Shown piece by piece: positions 9,928 through 17,492 of a DNA stretch of 64,000 nucleotides. The notes under the pieces were generated by a model. It had not been told where the DNA came from. It saw only the letters and a program-made list of their open reading frames with translations, and did not search any database. Positions within the stretch are counted from its first letter, which is position 1, and the number at the start of each line of letters is the position of its first letter. A program made the translations under genes and the position numbers. This DNA comes from Candidatus Altimarinota bacterium (lineage in GTDB: Bacteria; Patescibacteriota; Gracilibacteria; UBA1369). The stretch lies in NCBI GenBank assembly GCA_963677745.1, contig OY782391.1:896001-960000 (forward strand), written 5' to 3'.

Positions 9928-12504
9928 ATGTCCAAAAAATCTAAAAGACCGTTCTGGCATTGGCTGTTATTGGTGCTGGGATCTTTATTTTTATCGGTTC
10001 TGGCGGGATACCTGTATATTGCCTGGCTGCTGCCGCTGCCCGACAGTCTGGATCTGCGTCCCAGGCACGTTTCCACCAAGATTTATGACCGGAACGGTCA
10101 GTTGCTCTACGAGGTCTTGAGCAAGGGAGAAGGAAGGAAAACTTATTTAAGACTGGATGAAATGCCGCTGCTTTTTCAGAAAGCAATAATCGCCAGTGAA
10201 GACAGCGATTTTTATTCCCATGCCGGAGTTGATCCGGGAGCAATTGCCCGGGCGCTTTTTTATAATTATCTGGAACAAAAAGTCACCAGCGGGGCCAGCA
10301 CCATCACGCAACAGCTGGTCAGAAATTTGCTGGGGACCAACCGTGAGCGGAACCTCCAGGAGAAATTATTGGAAACCGTTTATGCCATCCGCATCAGTCA
10401 TGCCTACAGCAAGGAGAGGATTCTGGAAGAATATCTGAACACTGTTTATTTTGGCAATTTGTCCTATGGCGTGGCCGAGGCCGCCCGCAATTATTTCGGA
10501 AAAAATCTGTCCGATCTGGATCTGGCGGAAATTTCCATCCTGGCCGGTCTGCCCAAAGCCCCTTCCGCCTATAATCCGCTGGTAAATCCGGAAAAGGCCA
10601 AAAAAAGACAGCAGTATGTGTTGGGGCGCCTCGTGGCGCAGGGCGATATCACGGCCGCCCGGGCCGAAGAGGCGGCCGCCCGCGTGCTGCATTTCAAGAG
10701 CGGCAAAACCGCCATCGAGGCGCCCCATTTCGTCCACCACGTGCTGGCCCAACTGGAGGAAGAATACGGGCATGATTTTGTCTATAGCGGAATTTCCGTA
10801 CGCACCACTCTGGACCTGAATTTGCAGCAGGAAGCCCAAAAAATCGTCAACCGCCAGCTGGATCTGTTGAAACAGAAAAATGTCGGCAACGCCGCCCTCC
10901 TGGCCGCCACCGTGCCGGACGGGCAGGTACTGGTCTGGCTGGGCAGCCGAGATTATTTTGATGATTCCATCGACGGCCAGGTGGACATTATCGGCGCTGC
11001 GCGCCAGCCCGGCTCCGCCCTCAAACCGTTTCTCTACCTGCTGGCCTTGGAAAACGGCGACACTCTGGCCAGCCTGATCGAGGACTTGCCCATCAAGGTC
11101 AAGACGGAGGGCGGCGTCTATTCACCGCTCAACTATGATCTGGACTTCCACGGCCCGGTTCGGCTGCGTGAAGCTTTGGCCAATTCTTTCAATATTCCCG
11201 CGGTTAAAACCCAGGAAAAACTGGGCACTTCCCGTTTTCTGAATTTCCTGCGCCGCCTTGGTATGGATACCCTGGATCAGGATCCTGAATATTATGGTCT
11301 GGCCCTCACTCTGGGAGGAGGGGAAATCCGGCTGGCCGACCTGGCCAACGCTTATCTGACCTTGGCCGATTACGGTCGAAAAAAAAATTTCAGCACCATT
11401 CTGGAAATAACAGACGCTTCCGGCGGCACCATTTATAAATGGACTGCCCCGCTTTCCTCCCGTGTCCTTGGAGCCAACGGCGAACAGAATGCCTGGCTGA
11501 TTGCAGACGCACTTTCCGACCCCAACGCCCGTCTGAAAAGTTTCGGAGAAGGTAATGTCCTGGAACTCTCTGTCCCGGCCGCCGCCAAAACCGGCACCAC
11601 CCGTAATTTTCGCGACAACTGGACTTTTGGCTTCACGCCGCAGCTTCTGACAGCGGTTTGGGTTGGCAATTCCGATGCCACCCCCATGGAAAACATTTCC
11701 GGAATCGACGGCGCCGGCCCGATCTGGCACGATTTCATGACACTGGCCTACGAAAAACTCCCCGACACCCCCGTTTCCTCCACTGTCGATATTCGTAAAG
11801 GTAAGAAAAGTAAGAATAATCTTACAAATCTTACTTTTACCGACACCGCAAGTAGCCCGTTGCTCCCTCCCCCCCGCCTGATTGAACAGCAGATTTGTGC
11901 TGTATCCGGGCTGGCGGTCAGCGAAAATTGCCAGGAAAGCCTGAATGAATGGTTCATTGAGGGGACCCAGCCGCTTCAAAAGGATTATTTCTGGCAAAAA
12001 TACAGCTGTGGCGCGGTCAATAGCGGCACAGCTGCTCCGGCCGATGAGCCCGCCGGCAGCGTCCGGTATTTTATTAACTATCCTTTTGTGTATCAAAATT
12101 GGGCCAAGGAAAGGGGTTTCCTGCCCACTCCCGACTGCCGGCCGCTGCCTCCGGAAAACCTGCCGGCGGCGTCCGCCGATTTGCCGCCCCTGCAAATTGT
12201 TTCCCCGCTGGCCGGAGATTCCTTTCAGATAAACGCAAATCTGCCTCTGGACAGCCAGAAAGTCCCGCTTAAAATTATTGTCTACCCGGCCCGTTTTACT
12301 GACCAGTCCAATCCGCCTAGCCAAATTGAGCTGATTATCAACGGAAAAGTGATCAAAAGCCAGTCATTGAGCGGCTCCGCCGCTCCCCTGGAAATAAAGG
12401 AATTTTGGTTACCCGAACGCGGCCTGCAGCAAATAGAAGTCCGGATTACCTCAGAGAATAAGGCAGAACTGGCAAAAGACAGCGTGCAGTTCAGTGTGGA
12501 GTAA
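9928..12504 (+). CDS. pbpC: Penicillin-binding protein 1C
   Basis: Transglycosylase motifs EDSDFYSH, GASTITQQL; transpeptidase GSALK, SFN, KTGT; C-terminal BiPBP_C-like IVSPLAG region. Confidence 0.9.
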   Translation: MSKKSKRPFWHWLLLVLGSLFLSVLAGYLYIAWLLPLPDSLDLRPRHVSTKIYDRNGQLLYEVLSKGEGRKTYLRLDEMPLLFQKAIIASEDSDFYSHAGVDPGAIARALFYNYLEQKVTSGASTITQQLVRNLLGTNRERNLQEKLLETVYAIRISHAYSKERILEEYLNTVYFGNLSYGVAEAARNYFGKNLSDLDLAEISILAGLPKAPSAYNPLVNPEKAKKRQQYVLGRLVAQGDITAARAEEAAARVLHFKSGKTAIEAPHFVHHVLAQLEEEYGHDFVYSGISVRTTLDLNLQQEAQKIVNRQLDLLKQKNVGNAALLAATVPDGQVLVWLGSRDYFDDSIDGQVDIIGAARQPGSALKPFLYLLALENGDTLASLIEDLPIKVKTEGGVYSPLNYDLDFHGPVRLREALANSFNIPAVKTQEKLGTSRFLNFLRRLGMDTLDQDPEYYGLALTLGGGEIRLADLANAYLTLADYGRKKNFSTILEITDASGGTIYKWTAPLSSRVLGANGEQNAWLIADALSDPNARLKSFGEGNVLELSVPAAAKTGTTRNFRDNWTFGFTPQLLTAVWVGNSDATPMENISGIDGAGPIWHDFMTLAYEKLPDTPVSSTVDIRKGKKSKNNLTNLTFTDTASSPLLPPPRLIEQQICAVSGLAVSENCQESLNEWFIEGTQPLQKDYFWQKYSCGAVNSGTAAPADEPAGSVRYFINYPFVYQNWAKERGFLPTPDCRPLPPENLPAASADLPPLQIVSPLAGDSFQINANLPLDSQKVPLKIIVYPARFTDQSNPPSQIELIINGKVIKSQSLSGSAAPLEIKEFWLPERGLQQIEVRITSENKAELAKDSVQFSVE

Positions 12505-12638
12505 AGCCGCGGCAAACGTTAATAGCATAACAATTCCCCAGCCTGTCATCTGAATTGCTGAAACGATTAGTCAGACTCAAAGTTAATATAAGTGCTTGCC
12601 AACGCGCAAAAAACAAAAAACAGCCAAAATTGGCTTAA

Positions 12639-12667
12639 TTGACATAAAATTCCCTCTTTGATAAAAC
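12639..12667 (+). promoter_or_regulatory. Putative promoter of the S-layer transcript
   Basis: TTGACA-N17-TAAAAC with TGn extension, ~525 nt upstream of ATG 13194. Confidence 0.5.
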
Positions 12668-12698
12668 ATCTCAGCCGGTCGTAATCAGCCAGCGTTTA

Positions 12699-13130
12699 AG
12701 TAGTGTGTTCCAGACTGCGGTTATCGGTAAGGTTGCAGTTCGAATCTGGAAAGTACCCTTCAGCGCATGGCGTAAACAAAAACGACGGAAATACGTTCAT
12801 TGAAAACCAGCGGGTAGTCGGAGTTAACCGGGCGTTCTCCCTCGGCCGCCTTAAAACGGCCCAAGACAGCGTAAGGCAAATTGTCCGACTACAGCAAGAG
12901 CATCATTGGGTTTCCACCCGGGAACAAACTTCATGATGGCTTTGCCCGAGTTTTCCAAATCAAGGACCCGTCCACAAGGTCCGGTGATTTTCAGGATACA
13001 ACACCTGGAAGTCCGGTTGGGTACTCCTCAAAAATTCTCCCAGAAAATGGCGTTATCCGCCAAAACCCCAAAGTTTAAATTTAAACTTTAAGATCGCTTT
13101 TACTCAAGGTAAAAAAGCGGTCGCACTACT
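12699..13130 (+). ncRNA. Candidate large structured leader RNA upstream of the S-layer gene
   Basis: Nested helices: AGTAGTGTG/CGCACTACT, TTCCAGA/TCTGGAA, AGTACCC/GGGTACT, GAAAAC/GTTTTC, GTAGTCGGA/TCCGACTAC plus several hairpins. Confidence 0.6.
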
Positions 13131-13193
13131 ATGTACGTCAAGTTCAGACTTTATGTACATCGATGTTTATTTATCTATCTATTTATTCTAATT

Positions 13194-16100
13194 ATGGATT
13201 TATCCACAACATTTGCGTCAATTCGCAAACAAGTTGCTGGTCTTAGCTTGGTAGCACTCGTTGCAGGTCTCTTTGCAGCAGGTGTTGCTACAGCCGCAAC
13301 TGAGAATATTTTCTCAGATGTTCCAGCCGATGCGTGGTATGCAGGTTATGTAAATGACCTCGCTACTGCGGGAGTAATCGACTCCACAAAAGATATGTAC
13401 AGACCAGGTGACCTGGTCAACAGAGCTGAAATGGGCAAGTTTGCCTTCATGGTTTCCGGACTTCCTCTGGAGACTGCTTCAGCCGCTCCTTACAAGGATG
13501 TCGCTATGGGCCAATGGTATACAGATTATATCTATACCCTGACCAAGAACGGCATCGTCAGCGGAGACAAAGCCAATGGTGTCCCCACCGGTTATTTCAG
13601 ACCGGAAGCTCCTTTGAACAGAGCTGAGGCCGCCAAGATGCTTGTCAATGCTGCTGCCATGGCCGAAGACATTACAGGAAATCCTCATTTCCCTGATGTC
13701 ACTTCCGGCGCCTGGTATTTCAACTTTGTTGAAACAGCCTTCAATAACGGTGTTGTATCCGGCTATCCGGATGGCAACTACAGGCCTTCCAACAACATCA
13801 ACAGAGCAGAAGCCGCCAAGATGGTATTCCTGAGCATGAACCCGGTTGCTGCCGGCTTCACTCTGGATTCCGCCGCCGCTGCTTCCAAGACTACTGTTGA
13901 ACTGATCTTCTCGATGAACGTTGACTCCACTCTTGCTGCTGACGAAGCCAACTATCTCATCGAAGACTCAAGTGGTACCAAGCTCATAGTTTCCGCCGCT
14001 GAAGTAACAGCTGCCGACACTGTTATGCTGACTACCAGCACACAGACAGAGGGCAAAGTATATTATGTAACTGCCAAGAATGTGGAATCCGATGCCGGCG
14101 ATGCTCTCGCTAGCAGCGATTCCGTATCATTCCTCGGCTACGGTGCCGACGTCAGTGGTGGAGCTCTTGAAGTAGCTCTTTCCACACAGACTCCGGTTGC
14201 CGGATCCATTCCAAGTGGTGCTACAGGCGTAGTATTTACTTGTTGGGATTTCATGGCTGGTTCCAGCGATGTGACAGTTAAATCTGTTCACGTACATCGC
14301 GTAGGCCCAGGTTCACAAGGTGATTTTGACAATGTTTACCTGTACAATGGTGATCAGAGACTTACCACCGGAAGAACAATCAGCAGCGAAACTCAATTGG
14401 TTGAGTTCAACAACATCAACCAGGAGGTTGCCGCTGGTGACAACATGAAGCTCTGCGTAGTTGCAGATCTTAAAGCTGGTGCAAACGGAGGCGTACACGC
14501 TTTTGAACTTGCTTCAGCCGATTCAGTTATGAGCAACTCTTCAGACATGACTGGCTCCTTCCCGCTCCGCGGTGCCGATCAACTGATTACCTCTGCCCAA
14601 GTAGGCAAGAGCTACATCAGAAGAAACGGTACTCTGAACGAGGCCACCATTGGTGAAAAGGGTGTCAGAATTGCCCAGTTCGAGATCGAAGCTGACGGTT
14701 CAGAAGACCAGCAGCTCGAAAGAGTAGCTTTATATGTGAGAGGATCCATCAGCACAGGTGCAGTTTCCAACATGAAACTGTTTGTTGAAGGAGATTCCAC
14801 AGCTCTGGCCGCCACCGATGCCGTTGGTGCCAAAGAATTGGCTACCTTCTCTCTGGACAAACCATTCAAGATTGGACGTGGTATGAGAAAGATTTTCTAT
14901 GTCACGGGCGATCTGAATCCTGGCAAGAACGGTGATACTATCAAGATTTATCTTGATGAAACCACTGATCTTAACGTAACCGGAACAACTTACGGTTATG
15001 GAACCAGAGTCGACGCTACCAAATATGACGGTGGCGACGGTGCTGACCTTTTGGTCAACACATCTGATGATGAATATTCTTATGTCACCATCAAGGGTTC
15101 CGACTTCGTAGCTAACTGGACAGGTCCTTCCGCCTCCAATATTCCGGTAGGACAAAAAGCCGTAAGCTGCTTGGATCTGACCCTCACCAACTCTTCCGGT
15201 GAAGATCTCGAGATCAAAGACTGGGAAGTTGATGTAGCTGTTGCTCCAATCGTAGTAGCCGCCGATGGTGGTCTCTACAACGCGACAAACTCGACTCCAA
15301 ACTACACTCTCTTCAAGCTCGCCAGGATCAATGACGATGGAACCCTCGGTGGTTCCCTGCTTGGTCCAAACGAACTTCCAGGTGTAGTTGATGCTCTTCA
15401 AACCGTTAAACTTGGTGGAAGTGCCAACATCACTGCCGGTGAAACTGTCAAGGCCGCTGTCGTATTCGACATTGCCAACAACACTCTCATGAACGGTGAT
15501 AAAATCACTTGTACCCTGAAGGCCTTGAATGGCTCAGGCAAGGATTATATCCGCGATATCAATGGAGATGCCTTAACAGCTTCGTCCATTACTCCTTCTT
15601 CCGACATCGTCGGTAATCCTCTCAAAGTGGTAGATGCCGCTTTGAAGGTGAAGGTTGCTTCCACTCCTGCTTCTCAGACAGTTGTAAAGGGTGTAAGCGA
15701 TGTCAGCCTGCTCGGTATTTCTCTGGAATCCGGAGTTTTGGATTCCACACTGAAGACTATCAGCATTGCATCTGCTATCGATACAGCTCCAGCAGCTGTT
15801 CCAGCAGGTGATGCAGACGTTCTCCTGACACAAAGGGTTGAGAGCGGCAAGGCCACCAAGGATGTGGTCACCAACCTCAAACTTTATGATGGGGCAACTC
15901 AGGTGGGTACAGTGGAAAGCATCAATGATTCCACAGGAAAAGTAACCTTCAACAACCTCAGCGTATCTATTCCGAAAGGAACAACTAAACTGTTGGTTTT
16001 GAAAGGTAACATCTCCAACTCCACTTACACTGATACTCTGATCAAGTTTGGTGTTGTCGCTAATACAGACATCACTGCTCTTGATAACAACAGCCAGACA

Positions 16101-17492
16101 ATTTCCGGTATCAGCACAGTCAATGCCGAAAACGGCTTGAATGCAGGCGCAAACCTCATTCCAAGTGCTACCGGTACTACCATCACCATTAAGGATGCTG
16201 GTACTGTCAATGTTGCTTCTACCAGCCAATACACATCCAAACTGATTGGTGGTGGAGTAACTGCTGAAAAGATTGGCAACATCAAGTTCAACATGACTAA
16301 TGCTCCTGCCACGCTTGATGACTTCGTTCTGTCCGTATTGGGCGAACCAGCCGGTCTGCAAACTGTTTATCTGTTTGACTCCAGCTGTTCAACAGCCAGG
16401 GGCTCAGCCACAGGTTATTCTGTAACCGGTGGAACAGTCACCGTAACTGATGCCGCCATTGCTCTGCCAATTGGACAAACCACACTCTGTATCAAGGGTG
16501 ATTTTGCTCCGGTCAGCAGCACTCTGGTTGACCCACCAGTATCCGGTAAATTCGTTGCCATCGCTTTGACTGAAGTAAATCAGATCACATCCGGTGGTTC
16601 CGATATCAACGGTAACTTTGCTTCCTCAGTTGGTACAGAGACCGTTGGTATGACCGCTATTGCCACCAACCCCACCCTTTCCGGTGCTGTTGCTGCTGGT
16701 GACGTTGTTAAGATCGACGAAGAGTTGATGTATGTATCTTCAATCGGTCCAGTAGTAGTTATCAGAGGTTTTGCCGGTACAGCTGCCAATGCGCATTCCG
16801 CAGGCGCCGCCTACCAGGTATTGACCTCCGGAGTAACCAAACTGTTTGAATTGAATACTGCCACCTATAACAGGGGCACTGTTCTTTCCGATGGTACAAA
16901 CTACTTAATGTGTTTGAACCCAGTTTGCGCCGTAGCCGCTACAGATCAGTTGATCATCTCCGGTGTTACATTTAACCCAGCAGCTACCGCTCTGGATGTT
17001 AAATTTAACCAGGCAGGTGAAGCCTTCAAACTCAGAAAGGCTGCTCCAACTTTGGCTCTCTCCAACTCTGTAGTAGGAGGAAACACGCTCGCCACCTCGA
17101 CTCAGTTCGCTGTTGCAGCATTCTCCATTACAGCTGCAGGTGTGGGCGCAGTTGAATTCCAGCCAACCGATGCTATGAACTTTACAGTCGGCACCGGAAC
17201 AACTGTCAACTCTTGTGCTTTATACGGTCCAGGCGACCAGAAGTTATCTACCAACGATGCTTCACCAGCATCTATTGCTTTCGACAATGTAAGTGCATGG
17301 TCGATTTCAGCAGGTGAAACCAAAGTTCTCACTGTAAAGTGCGATCTGACCACAGTTGGTGGTGATGATTTCCAGATGACATTGGATAGTTTTAGCTACA
17401 GTGACGGAGTAGTTGCCAATATTACCGGCGACACCTCATTGATTGTTAATACTCTGCCAATCGCTGGCCCAACATTTACCAGACCCACATAG
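13194..17492 (+). CDS. S-layer protein with three N-terminal SLH domains and Ig-like beta-rich domains
   Basis: Signal peptide, FSDVPADAWY / YRPGDLVNRAE / FRPEAPLNRAE / YRPSNNINRAE SLH repeats, Thr/Ala/Val/Gly-rich body. Start moved to ATG 13194, after an A/T-rich leader. Confidence 0.9.
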   Translation: MDLSTTFASIRKQVAGLSLVALVAGLFAAGVATAATENIFSDVPADAWYAGYVNDLATAGVIDSTKDMYRPGDLVNRAEMGKFAFMVSGLPLETASAAPYKDVAMGQWYTDYIYTLTKNGIVSGDKANGVPTGYFRPEAPLNRAEAAKMLVNAAAMAEDITGNPHFPDVTSGAWYFNFVETAFNNGVVSGYPDGNYRPSNNINRAEAAKMVFLSMNPVAAGFTLDSAAAASKTTVELIFSMNVDSTLAADEANYLIEDSSGTKLIVSAAEVTAADTVMLTTSTQTEGKVYYVTAKNVESDAGDALASSDSVSFLGYGADVSGGALEVALSTQTPVAGSIPSGATGVVFTCWDFMAGSSDVTVKSVHVHRVGPGSQGDFDNVYLYNGDQRLTTGRTISSETQLVEFNNINQEVAAGDNMKLCVVADLKAGANGGVHAFELASADSVMSNSSDMTGSFPLRGADQLITSAQVGKSYIRRNGTLNEATIGEKGVRIAQFEIEADGSEDQQLERVALYVRGSISTGAVSNMKLFVEGDSTALAATDAVGAKELATFSLDKPFKIGRGMRKIFYVTGDLNPGKNGDTIKIYLDETTDLNVTGTTYGYGTRVDATKYDGGDGADLLVNTSDDEYSYVTIKGSDFVANWTGPSASNIPVGQKAVSCLDLTLTNSSGEDLEIKDWEVDVAVAPIVVAADGGLYNATNSTPNYTLFKLARINDDGTLGGSLLGPNELPGVVDALQTVKLGGSANITAGETVKAAVVFDIANNTLMNGDKITCTLKALNGSGKDYIRDINGDALTASSITPSSDIVGNPLKVVDAALKVKVASTPASQTVVKGVSDVSLLGISLESGVLDSTLKTISIASAIDTAPAAVPAGDADVLLTQRVESGKATKDVVTNLKLYDGATQVGTVESINDSTGKVTFNNLSVSIPKGTTKLLVLKGNISNSTYTDTLIKFGVVANTDITALDNNSQTISGISTVNAENGLNAGANLIPSATGTTITIKDAGTVNVASTSQYTSKLIGGGVTAEKIGNIKFNMTNAPATLDDFVLSVLGEPAGLQTVYLFDSSCSTARGSATGYSVTGGTVTVTDAAIALPIGQTTLCIKGDFAPVSSTLVDPPVSGKFVAIALTEVNQITSGGSDINGNFASSVGTETVGMTAIATNPTLSGAVAAGDVVKIDEELMYVSSIGPVVVIRGFAGTAANAHSAGAAYQVLTSGVTKLFELNTATYNRGTVLSDGTNYLMCLNPVCAVAATDQLIISGVTFNPAATALDVKFNQAGEAFKLRKAAPTLALSNSVVGGNTLATSTQFAVAAFSITAAGVGAVEFQPTDAMNFTVGTGTTVNSCALYGPGDQKLSTNDASPASIAFDNVSAWSISAGETKVLTVKCDLTTVGGDDFQMTLDSFSYSDGVVANITGDTSLIVNTLPIAGPTFTRPT

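Follow-up and report, generated by a model that had tools for sequence, protein, structure and literature searches.

A conserved structured RNA element upstream of an SLH-domain surface-protein gene in one family of Peribacteria

The locus and the elements of the proposed leader region

The stretch of DNA analysed here (the window) comprises 64,000 nucleotides (nt) of the genome G000, which consists of a single contig of 1.336 Mb, and corresponds to G000:C1:896001-960000. Within the window, a gap of 626 nt separates a gene for a class-A penicillin-binding protein (PBP; 9928-12504, with Transgly and Transpeptidase domains) from a + strand gene for a surface protein with SLH domains (13194..17492). 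The gap ranks seventh largest among the stretches of the genome without open reading frames (ORFs) of 100 amino acids (aa) or more, and 4.9% of the genome lies outside stop-to-stop ORFs of at least 100 aa. The gap holds a conserved RNA structure that is read from the + strand, is linked to the SLH gene and is preceded by a conserved promoter motif.

The ORF called for the surface protein (1453 aa) carries three SLH domains at its N-terminus (Pfam E 7e-32). The start at ATG 13131, chosen by the ORF caller and retained in the preliminary description of this DNA, adds 21 residues that are conserved in none of the orthologues. Since the alignments of orthologues begin at residue 1 of the N-terminus MDLSTTFAS and the in-frame ATG 13131 is unconserved, the start has been corrected to ATG 13194, giving a protein of 1432 aa. 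The segment 13131-13193 represents the last hairpin and the AU-rich tract of the leader rather than a coding N-terminus.

The elements of the leader region, from 5' to 3' and in window coordinates, are the following, where A4 and A7 denote alignments and SL1 and H5 individual stem-loops:

12559..12584, + strand: candidate second promoter P1, similar to promoters of extracytoplasmic function (ECF) sigma factors, TGAAAC-N16-AGTT, in the conserved block 12544-12600
12639..12667, + strand: predicted promoter P2, with -35 TTGACA (12639-44), a 17-nt spacer and a TG-extended -10 TGATAAAAC (12659-67)
12691-12714 (5' strand) and 12745-12766 (3' strand), + strand: SL1, a long imperfect stem-loop with helix 12708-14/12745-51 at its tip
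12798..12811, + strand: conserved single-stranded motif CAUUGAAAACCAGC, family consensus YUUGAMAAY-N-AG
12814-22/12884-92, + strand: stem of H5, closing a variable insert that holds the GGCCG/CGGCC hairpin
12894..12945, + strand: core hairpin, with basal stem GCAAGAGCAUCAU/AUGAUGGCUUUGC around the invariant GGGUUUCCNCCCGGGAACAAACUU (12908-12931)
12964..12982, + strand: hairpin GGACC/loop/GGUCC, with 5/5 pairs changed on both sides and 92.5% of alignment cells paired
12989..13010, + strand: variable hairpin UUUCAGG/CCUGGAA; the hairpins of relatives at this place are capped by GCAA, GAAA or UUCG
13048..13062, + strand: hairpin UGGCG/CGCCA, kept with another stem sequence in L020, G024, G003 and G017
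13070..13089, + strand: AU-only palindromic hairpin AAAGUUUAAAUUUAAACUUU, present in 22/22 aligned orthologous leaders
13092..13122, + strand: hairpin GAUCGCUUUUAC/GUAAAAAAGCGGUC with the conserved loop ACUCAAG (13102-08), predicted by RNAalifold on A4 and A7
13131..13160, + strand: last hairpin AUGUACGUC...GACUUUAUGUACAU, found in 7/7 single-sequence folds
13165..13193, + strand: AU/pyrimidine-rich, G-poor tract without a Shine-Dalgarno (SD) sequence, abutting the start codon and conserved family-wide

Conservation and fold of the element

A blastn search of the gap against 41 relatives identified a member of the same genus (G002), 71% identical across 645 nt; the matches in G024, G017, G003, G004, G023, G021 and G015 are patchy. 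At E values up to 1e-4, eight of the 36 family genomes match. The nearest relative (L021) shares 75.8% identity with G000 across the gap, and the order PBP gene, gap, SLH gene is retained in the matching loci. A 24-nt core block, GGGTTTCCNCCCGGGAACAAACTT, is invariant in eight out of eight sequences except for the one N position, which is A or C. Its exact pattern (the first 22 letters of GGGTTTCCNCCCGGGAACAAACTT) was found in five species genomes and two metagenome contigs.

The eight distinct sequences carrying the core were aligned (A4), and for the central domain both a plain MAFFT alignment (A5) and a model-fitted alignment of nine sequences (A8) were made. A covariance model (R1) built from A5, covering the central domain 12794-12986, recovered all eight sequences and added G015 at an E value of 1e-6. 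Among 151 order-level genomes it gave one match per genome in five; these genomes all belong to this family, and each match precedes the SLH gene. In addition, blastn showed that the element is single-copy in G000. For the family-wide comparison, 23 orthologous upstream regions were defined by the best match to the SLH N-terminus per genome, with at least 41% identity; 30 of the 36 family genomes have a match, and seven weaker matches (L045-L051) were excluded as likely paralogues. One member of the same genus (G001, 91% complete) has neither a close SLH orthologue (best 35% identity) nor a leader match, which could be due to loss or to an assembly gap.

The preliminary description had proposed a closed, multi-branched RNA at 12699-13130, held together by five nested helices. 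These helices are indeed present, with 8 Watson-Crick pairs and one G.U pair out of 9 in the closing helix (12699-707/13122-130) and 7/7, 7/7, 6/6 and 9/9 pairs in the others, and the additional hairpins described with them could also be confirmed (GGCCG/CGGCC, ATCAT/ATGAT, GGACC/GGTCC, TGGCG at 13048 with CGCCA, and a 20-nt palindrome at 13070). All five helices occur in the minimum-free-energy (MFE) fold of 12699-13130 calculated with RNAfold. On the + strand this segment has a folding energy of -141.7 kcal/mol, compared with a mean of -113.9 for dinucleotide shuffles (z -5.13), and none of the 100 shuffles folds as well; a second run with 25 shuffles gave z -3.83, and the - strand gave z -3.01. 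The leader lies beyond the range of 36 random 432-nt windows from the same genome (z mean -0.72, sd 1.07, minimum -2.55). The fold is more than chance.

The closed architecture itself did not survive comparison with the homologues. In A4 (eight sequences, query counted), only 54.1% of the cells are paired in the closing helix and 51.0% in helix 12752-58/13019-25, with no convincing compensation in either helix on this alignment; the corresponding values are 93.8% for helix 12708-14/12745-51, 83.3% for 12802-07/12950-55 and 81.4% for 12814-22/12884-92. The 3' partner of the closing helix reads ACCACAAT and GCCCTCAA in the two nearest relatives, compared with GCACTACT in G000. Long-range helices of single MFE folds join different alignment columns in each of seven sequences, the sole recurring one being 12802/12950, common to G000 and L020. 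RNAalifold pairs the 5' closing strand locally, AGCGUUUAAGUAGUG...UUCCAGA with UCUGGAA...UACCCUUCAGCGC, which produces SL1 (12691-12766). The alignments point to a chain of local stem-loops rather than a closed multi-branch structure, and to a conserved element of about 12674-13193, so that the boundaries 12699-13130 were too narrow.

Covariation was evaluated for a central-domain structure consisting of H4, H5, the core hairpin and the GGACC hairpin. On A5, 89.3% of the cells are paired, against 28-48% (maximum 47.8%) when slid by 1-3 columns, and nine pairs have changed on both sides, a number that is equalled in 2 of 500 shuffles. On A8, 91.1% of the cells are paired, against 29-47% when slid by 1-3 columns, and 16 of 38 pairs have changed on both sides, which none of 500 shuffles equals. 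The homologues thus display the covariation expected of a conserved RNA, albeit that these numbers are supportive and not formal probabilities, since A8 leans to structure and the sequences are kin. The compensated pairs on A8 are found in H5 (5/6 basal pairs, with 92.6% of cells paired), the GGACC hairpin (5/5) and the basal stem of the core hairpin (four), while H4 is the weakest central helix (72% of cells paired). Cells with G.U outnumber those with A.C by 30 to 3, and this excess indicates an RNA that is read from the + strand. Together, the covariation and the G.U bias argue strongly for a selected + strand RNA structure.

Outside this central domain, the RNAalifold consensus on A4 includes SL1, with four pairs showing compensatory changes, and its tip helix has three pairs changed on both sides on the same alignment. 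Pairing of the YUUGAMAAY motif with 12950-55 is partly conserved (72-83% of cells), and most of the ACUCAAG hairpin stem does not vary and shows few compensations. When the segments between anchors were folded one sequence at a time, a GGACC-type hairpin formed in all seven relatives tested. The same 7/7 folds contain a second hairpin, whose cap is GCAA in L021, GAAA in G002 and UUCG in L020, another one preceding the palindrome, and the last hairpin, the latter with quite different stem sequences, such as GACGCACGA/UCGUGUGUC in L020 and UAUAUAUG/CAUAUAUA in G003.

Leaders could be predicted for 22 of the 23 family orthologues, with lengths of 264-627 nt and a mean z of -4.2; z does not exceed -2 in 19 of them and -3 in 16. 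They share a common order of promoter, variable stem-loops, YUUGAMAAY-N-AG motif, one to three hairpins with sequences that are wholly different between genera, AU palindrome hairpin, one more hairpin, G-poor AU/pyrimidine tract and ATG. The motif (as TTGA[AC]AA) lies 5' of the first hairpin in 22/23 orthologous leaders, G015 reading TTGACAT, and is followed by an H5-equivalent hairpin in 15 distal leaders. The palindrome hairpin is located 107-206 nt upstream of the ATG; one of its pairs is A-U in 14 leaders and G-C in eight, and its loop varies. The ACTCAAG loop pattern occurs 75-169 nt upstream of the ATG in eight of the 23 orthologues (G000, G002, G024, G003, G018, G023, G015 and G021). 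In G015 a different, unrelated hairpin occupies the place of the core; the invariant core hairpin appears to be an elaboration of one sub-clade. A combination of MAFFT and RNAalifold on 14 distal leaders recovered the palindrome alone, because the other stems share no sequence, and per-sequence folds were used instead.

At the loci L036, L039, L040, L041 and L043 (and L031) of distal genera, the gene preceding the leader encodes a tRNA, not the PBP, and the synteny break coincides exactly with the leader's 5' side. The leader stays with the SLH gene though its upstream neighbour changes, and therefore belongs to the SLH gene.

Two relatives show larger rearrangements. In G004 (L025/L011) about 220 nt are missing, comprising promoter P2 and SL1, as are the ACUCAAG hairpin and the palindrome hairpin. 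Block 1 and H5 have been retained, as has the invariant core, which lies about 150 nt from the ATG, and this locus can be regarded as a natural minimal leader. In G002 (L023) the AU-rich tract is separated from the last hairpin by an insertion of 77 nt (A4 columns 770-846), which has inverted repeats of its own (CGAGCGAG...CATGTGAG/CTCTCATG...) and may be a small mobile or duplicated element.

Coding potential, promoters and translation start

The gap does not appear to encode a protein. Open frames in it differ in frame and position among the eight homologues, none being shared, and the substitutions between G000 and L021 are distributed over the codon positions as 49/54/52, without codon periodicity. 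Both observations agree with the original view that no credible ORF is present. Comparison with known RNA families was likewise negative: Rfam 15 at the gathering threshold detected only tRNAs in the whole window and only tRNAs in 19 homologous loci, and at E values up to 10 the region 12400-13300 gave two chance-level - strand matches of 12-15 bits. No Rfam family therefore matches the leader at either threshold. With its selected structure, its position behind a promoter and its link to one gene, the early characterization of the element as an unusually large RNA outside the known families is supported. A blastn-short search of the genome for complementarity to the core, or for extra copies of it, yielded only chance-level matches of 11-17 nt.

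In 22 of the 23 orthologues the predicted promoter P2 is conserved as TTGAC[ATG]-17-TAnnnn, 300-663 nt before the ATG, and 20 of them have the TG extension; G004 is without this promoter. In G000 the -35/-10 pair is located 555 nt upstream of the ATG, and the only other candidate of this type within 1000 nt lies inside the PBP gene. A consensus promoter scan was blank because the -10 of P2 ends in C. From the position of P2, the transcription start site (TSS) would be near 12674 and the leader would have a length of about 520 nt, presumably continuous with the SLH mRNA. A look-up of sequencing runs for 11800-14800 yielded no RNA run containing this sequence.

A scan of 12300-13400 revealed no terminator-like site on the + strand. 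On the - strand of the same region five terminator-like sites were counted, where shuffles would give 1.1; as no - strand gene ends there, these sites probably arise as a by-product of leader hairpins that follow + strand A runs. An attenuator composed of the last hairpin and the U-rich tract was considered and rejected, as its stem is weak, its U tract is interrupted and the arrangement is unconserved in the distal clades.

The candidate promoter P1 has the form TGAAAC-N16-[AT]GTT and is found at exact spacing within 150 nt (33-138 nt) upstream of the sigma-70-like -35 in 20 of the 23 regions; TGTCAY precedes it. It resembles what we take to be the consensus of ECF-sigma promoters, and may be a second S-layer promoter. 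The whole genome contains two TGAAAC-N16-AGTT sites; the second of these (window 22645, - strand) falls within a + strand ORF of 1069 aa and was attributed to chance. Six sigma-70-family genes were identified in the genome, which is many for a genome of 1.3 Mb from the candidate phyla radiation (CPR), and four of them are of ECF size (195-219 aa). One is encoded in the window:

1540-2133, - strand: ECF-type sigma factor of 197 aa (Sigma70_r2, r4_2, Sigma70_ECF)

The TTGAMAAY motif was also examined as a third promoter or genome-wide signal. It occurs 19-30 times in the genome, mostly within coding sequence and with no common downstream element, and in the leaders it is followed by no consistent -10, so this possibility was rejected.

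Tetramers resembling an SD sequence precede 5.6% of 1134 long-ORF starts, compared with 13.7% at an in-gene control, and the regions upstream of starts are A/U-rich and G-poor. The genome thus seems to initiate translation without SD pairing, and the SD-less AU-rich tract before ATG 13194 fits this general mode. In 7/7 single-sequence folds roughly the last 17-40 nt before the ATG are predicted to be unpaired; in G000 and G024 a weak hairpin of 4-6 base pairs overlaps the 5' part of the AU-rich tract. These folds suggest that the translation-initiation region is left accessible.

Proposed function and alternative explanations

We consider it fairly probable that the gap encodes a cis-acting structured 5' leader of about 520 nt (around 12674-13193) of the S-layer mRNA, which stabilises this messenger and is tuned by protein. 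In this proposal, transcription would begin at the sigma-70-type extended -10 promoter at 12639-12667, to which the site at 12559-12584 may contribute, and would proceed into the gene without a terminator. The RNA would fold co-transcriptionally into about ten local stem-loops, i.e. a chain of SL1, H5, the invariant core, four small hairpins, the AU palindrome, the ACUCAAG-loop hairpin and the last hairpin. At its 3' end, some 30 nt of AU-rich sequence, for the most part unpaired and lacking an SD sequence, would lead to the start codon. The stacked stem-loops could shield an abundant mRNA from 5'-end-dependent and endonucleolytic decay and insulate the open translation-initiation region; such a stabilising or translational role is suggested by the modelled folds. 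The invariant modules (core, YUUGAMAAY, palindrome and ACUCAAG loop) might be recognised by a protein that adjusts stability or translation, as their sequence conservation suggests.

Several points weigh against this proposal. As G004 retains the gene without P2, SL1 and the 3' hairpins, much of the leader must be dispensable. The central domain is carried by eight or nine kin sequences, so that the shuffle statistics overstate the support, and the model-fitted alignment is biased toward structure. The core hairpin, the palindrome and the ACUCAAG stem are nearly invariant, with little or no covariation, and this could reflect a constraint at the DNA level. Three of the 22 leaders (G050, G020 and G022) fold little better than shuffles (z -1.06, -1.37 and -1.95). 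The promoter and terminator rules applied to CPR bacteria are assumed from model bacteria, and formation of an S-layer by the SLH protein is itself deduced solely from its SLH domains, size and signal peptide.

The same modules could be part of a sensing riboregulator, in which the core, the YUUGAMAAY motif and the palindrome bind either a small ligand or a specific protein, such as an envelope-stress factor or S-layer protein made in excess, and thereby switch translation or decay. This would account for the invariance of 24 consecutive core positions (one being A or C) in 8/8 sequences while the flanking stems covary, even though the core contains stems of its own, and for the conserved sequence of the palindrome in 22/22 leaders, where its distance from the ATG is roughly constant. 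Moreover, the core can be folded in two ways, as GUUUCC/GGGAAC (by eye) or in the RNAalifold version, which would explain why both strands are invariant, and the ECF-like promoter motif upstream hints at envelope-linked control. We nevertheless regard this explanation as rather doubtful. In contrast to riboswitch regulons, the element has a single copy per genome, always in front of the SLH gene (R1, 5 of 151 genomes), and nothing resembling an expression platform was detected, there being no + strand terminator-like site and no SD motif before the gene to sequester. In addition, the core is limited to a sub-clade (the five species genomes and two metagenome contigs), and an unrelated hairpin replaces it in G015.

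A large and highly structured RNA outside the known families, with a conserved promoter of its own, might also be an independent or processed stable non-coding RNA, trans-acting or structural, that merely adjoins the S-layer gene. The U-rich tract after the last hairpin and the 77-nt insertion that G002 tolerates between this hairpin and the start region would suit such an RNA. However, the scan for terminators detected no canonical one on the + strand, the stem of the last hairpin in G000 is AU-rich and weak, and its counterpart in the distal clades has no U run after it. No further promoter-like site separates the element from the ATG in G000, the complementarity of the core to other sites in the genome is not above chance, and the element remains in front of the SLH gene despite the change of neighbour. 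An independent RNA is improbable on these grounds. More improbable again is control at the DNA level only, with the inverted repeats as operators or promoter elements, a TSS near the gene and an incidental RNA fold. Sequence conservation of the kind expected for protein-binding DNA sites is seen in the palindrome, block 1 and the ACTCAAG stem, and the half-site co-variation of AAGTTTA versus AAATTTA suits a dimeric DNA binder as well as a hairpin. Yet stems with wholly different sequences between genera still pair (H5, GGACC and last hairpin), the variable hairpins are capped by stable RNA tetraloops, the ratio of 30 G.U to 3 A.C cannot come from DNA symmetry, and no -35/-10 pair is present near the ATG in G000.

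For the structured leader that we favour, the closest parallel is found in the slpA genes of Lactobacillaceae, for which tandem promoters and a stabilising stem-loop in the 5' untranslated region (UTR) have been described, with mRNA stabilisation, an exposed ribosome-binding site and lowered expression upon truncation being reported (PMC10221546). As in that description, a stable stem-loop structure lies here between tandem promoters, which are predicted in our case, and an S-layer gene. The two differ in that there is no sequence similarity, and that the present leader has about 520 nt, about ten stem-loops, an SD-less AU-rich start and a 24-nt invariant core, and belongs to a CPR lineage. 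The slpA leaders of Lactobacillaceae are also several-fold shorter. The role of the leader may well be analogous to that of the slpA leaders, although the present one is unrelated in sequence and unusually long.

Other parallels are more distant. The 5' UTR of E. coli ompA protects an abundant envelope-protein mRNA from 5'-end-dependent decay by means of 5' stem-loops; it is much shorter and SD-dependent, and its stem-loops differ in placement, since SL1 would start about 17 nt after the inferred TSS, not at the very 5' end. The leader of the S-layer gene slpA of Thermus thermophilus is a proposed target of protein regulators; the present element has no sequence or structural relation to it, and protein binding here is speculative. 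Like the Rfam families OLE, GOLLD, ROOL, HEARO and raiA, the element is several hundred nt long, has many conserved stem-loops and comes from uncultivated or unusual bacterial hosts; unlike them, it has no Rfam match and no conserved long-range or multi-way junction, and is fixed in cis to one gene.

CPR bacteria are uncultivated and have genomes of about 1 Mb, and to our knowledge almost nothing is known of their gene regulation and non-coding RNAs. The devotion of about 0.6 kb of a compact genome to one folded leader suggests that post-transcriptional control of the S-layer matters for the lifestyle of these organisms. The element provides an RNA motif that is ready for use as a covariance model in annotating Peribacteria genomes, and documents SD-less, AU-rich initiation downstream of a structured leader; the two conserved promoter motifs could be the first promoter models for the group. 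If the leader is a mere stabiliser, it would be an ordinary, though unusually large, case of a known strategy for a highly expressed gene. It is also conceivable, though we would give this little weight, that it is a riboregulator unique to one Peribacteria family, in which the core, YUUGAMAAY and palindrome dock an RNA-binding protein or ligand and which works together with an ECF-type promoter. If so, it would adjust the output of the main surface protein to envelope state or host attachment, and would represent a new class of large sensor RNAs that act in cis in minimal-genome bacteria.

A search of the literature on structured RNAs of CPR bacteria yielded nothing on this element. The Peribacteria genome paper mentions S-layer genes, and a term search of its main text gave nothing on non-coding RNA, UTRs or riboswitches (PMC4736985). 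Four further ORF-free stretches of 670-890 nt in the same genome (G000:C1 776519-777405, 334817-335637, 1149821-1150594 and 868414-869082) may hold more non-coding RNAs.

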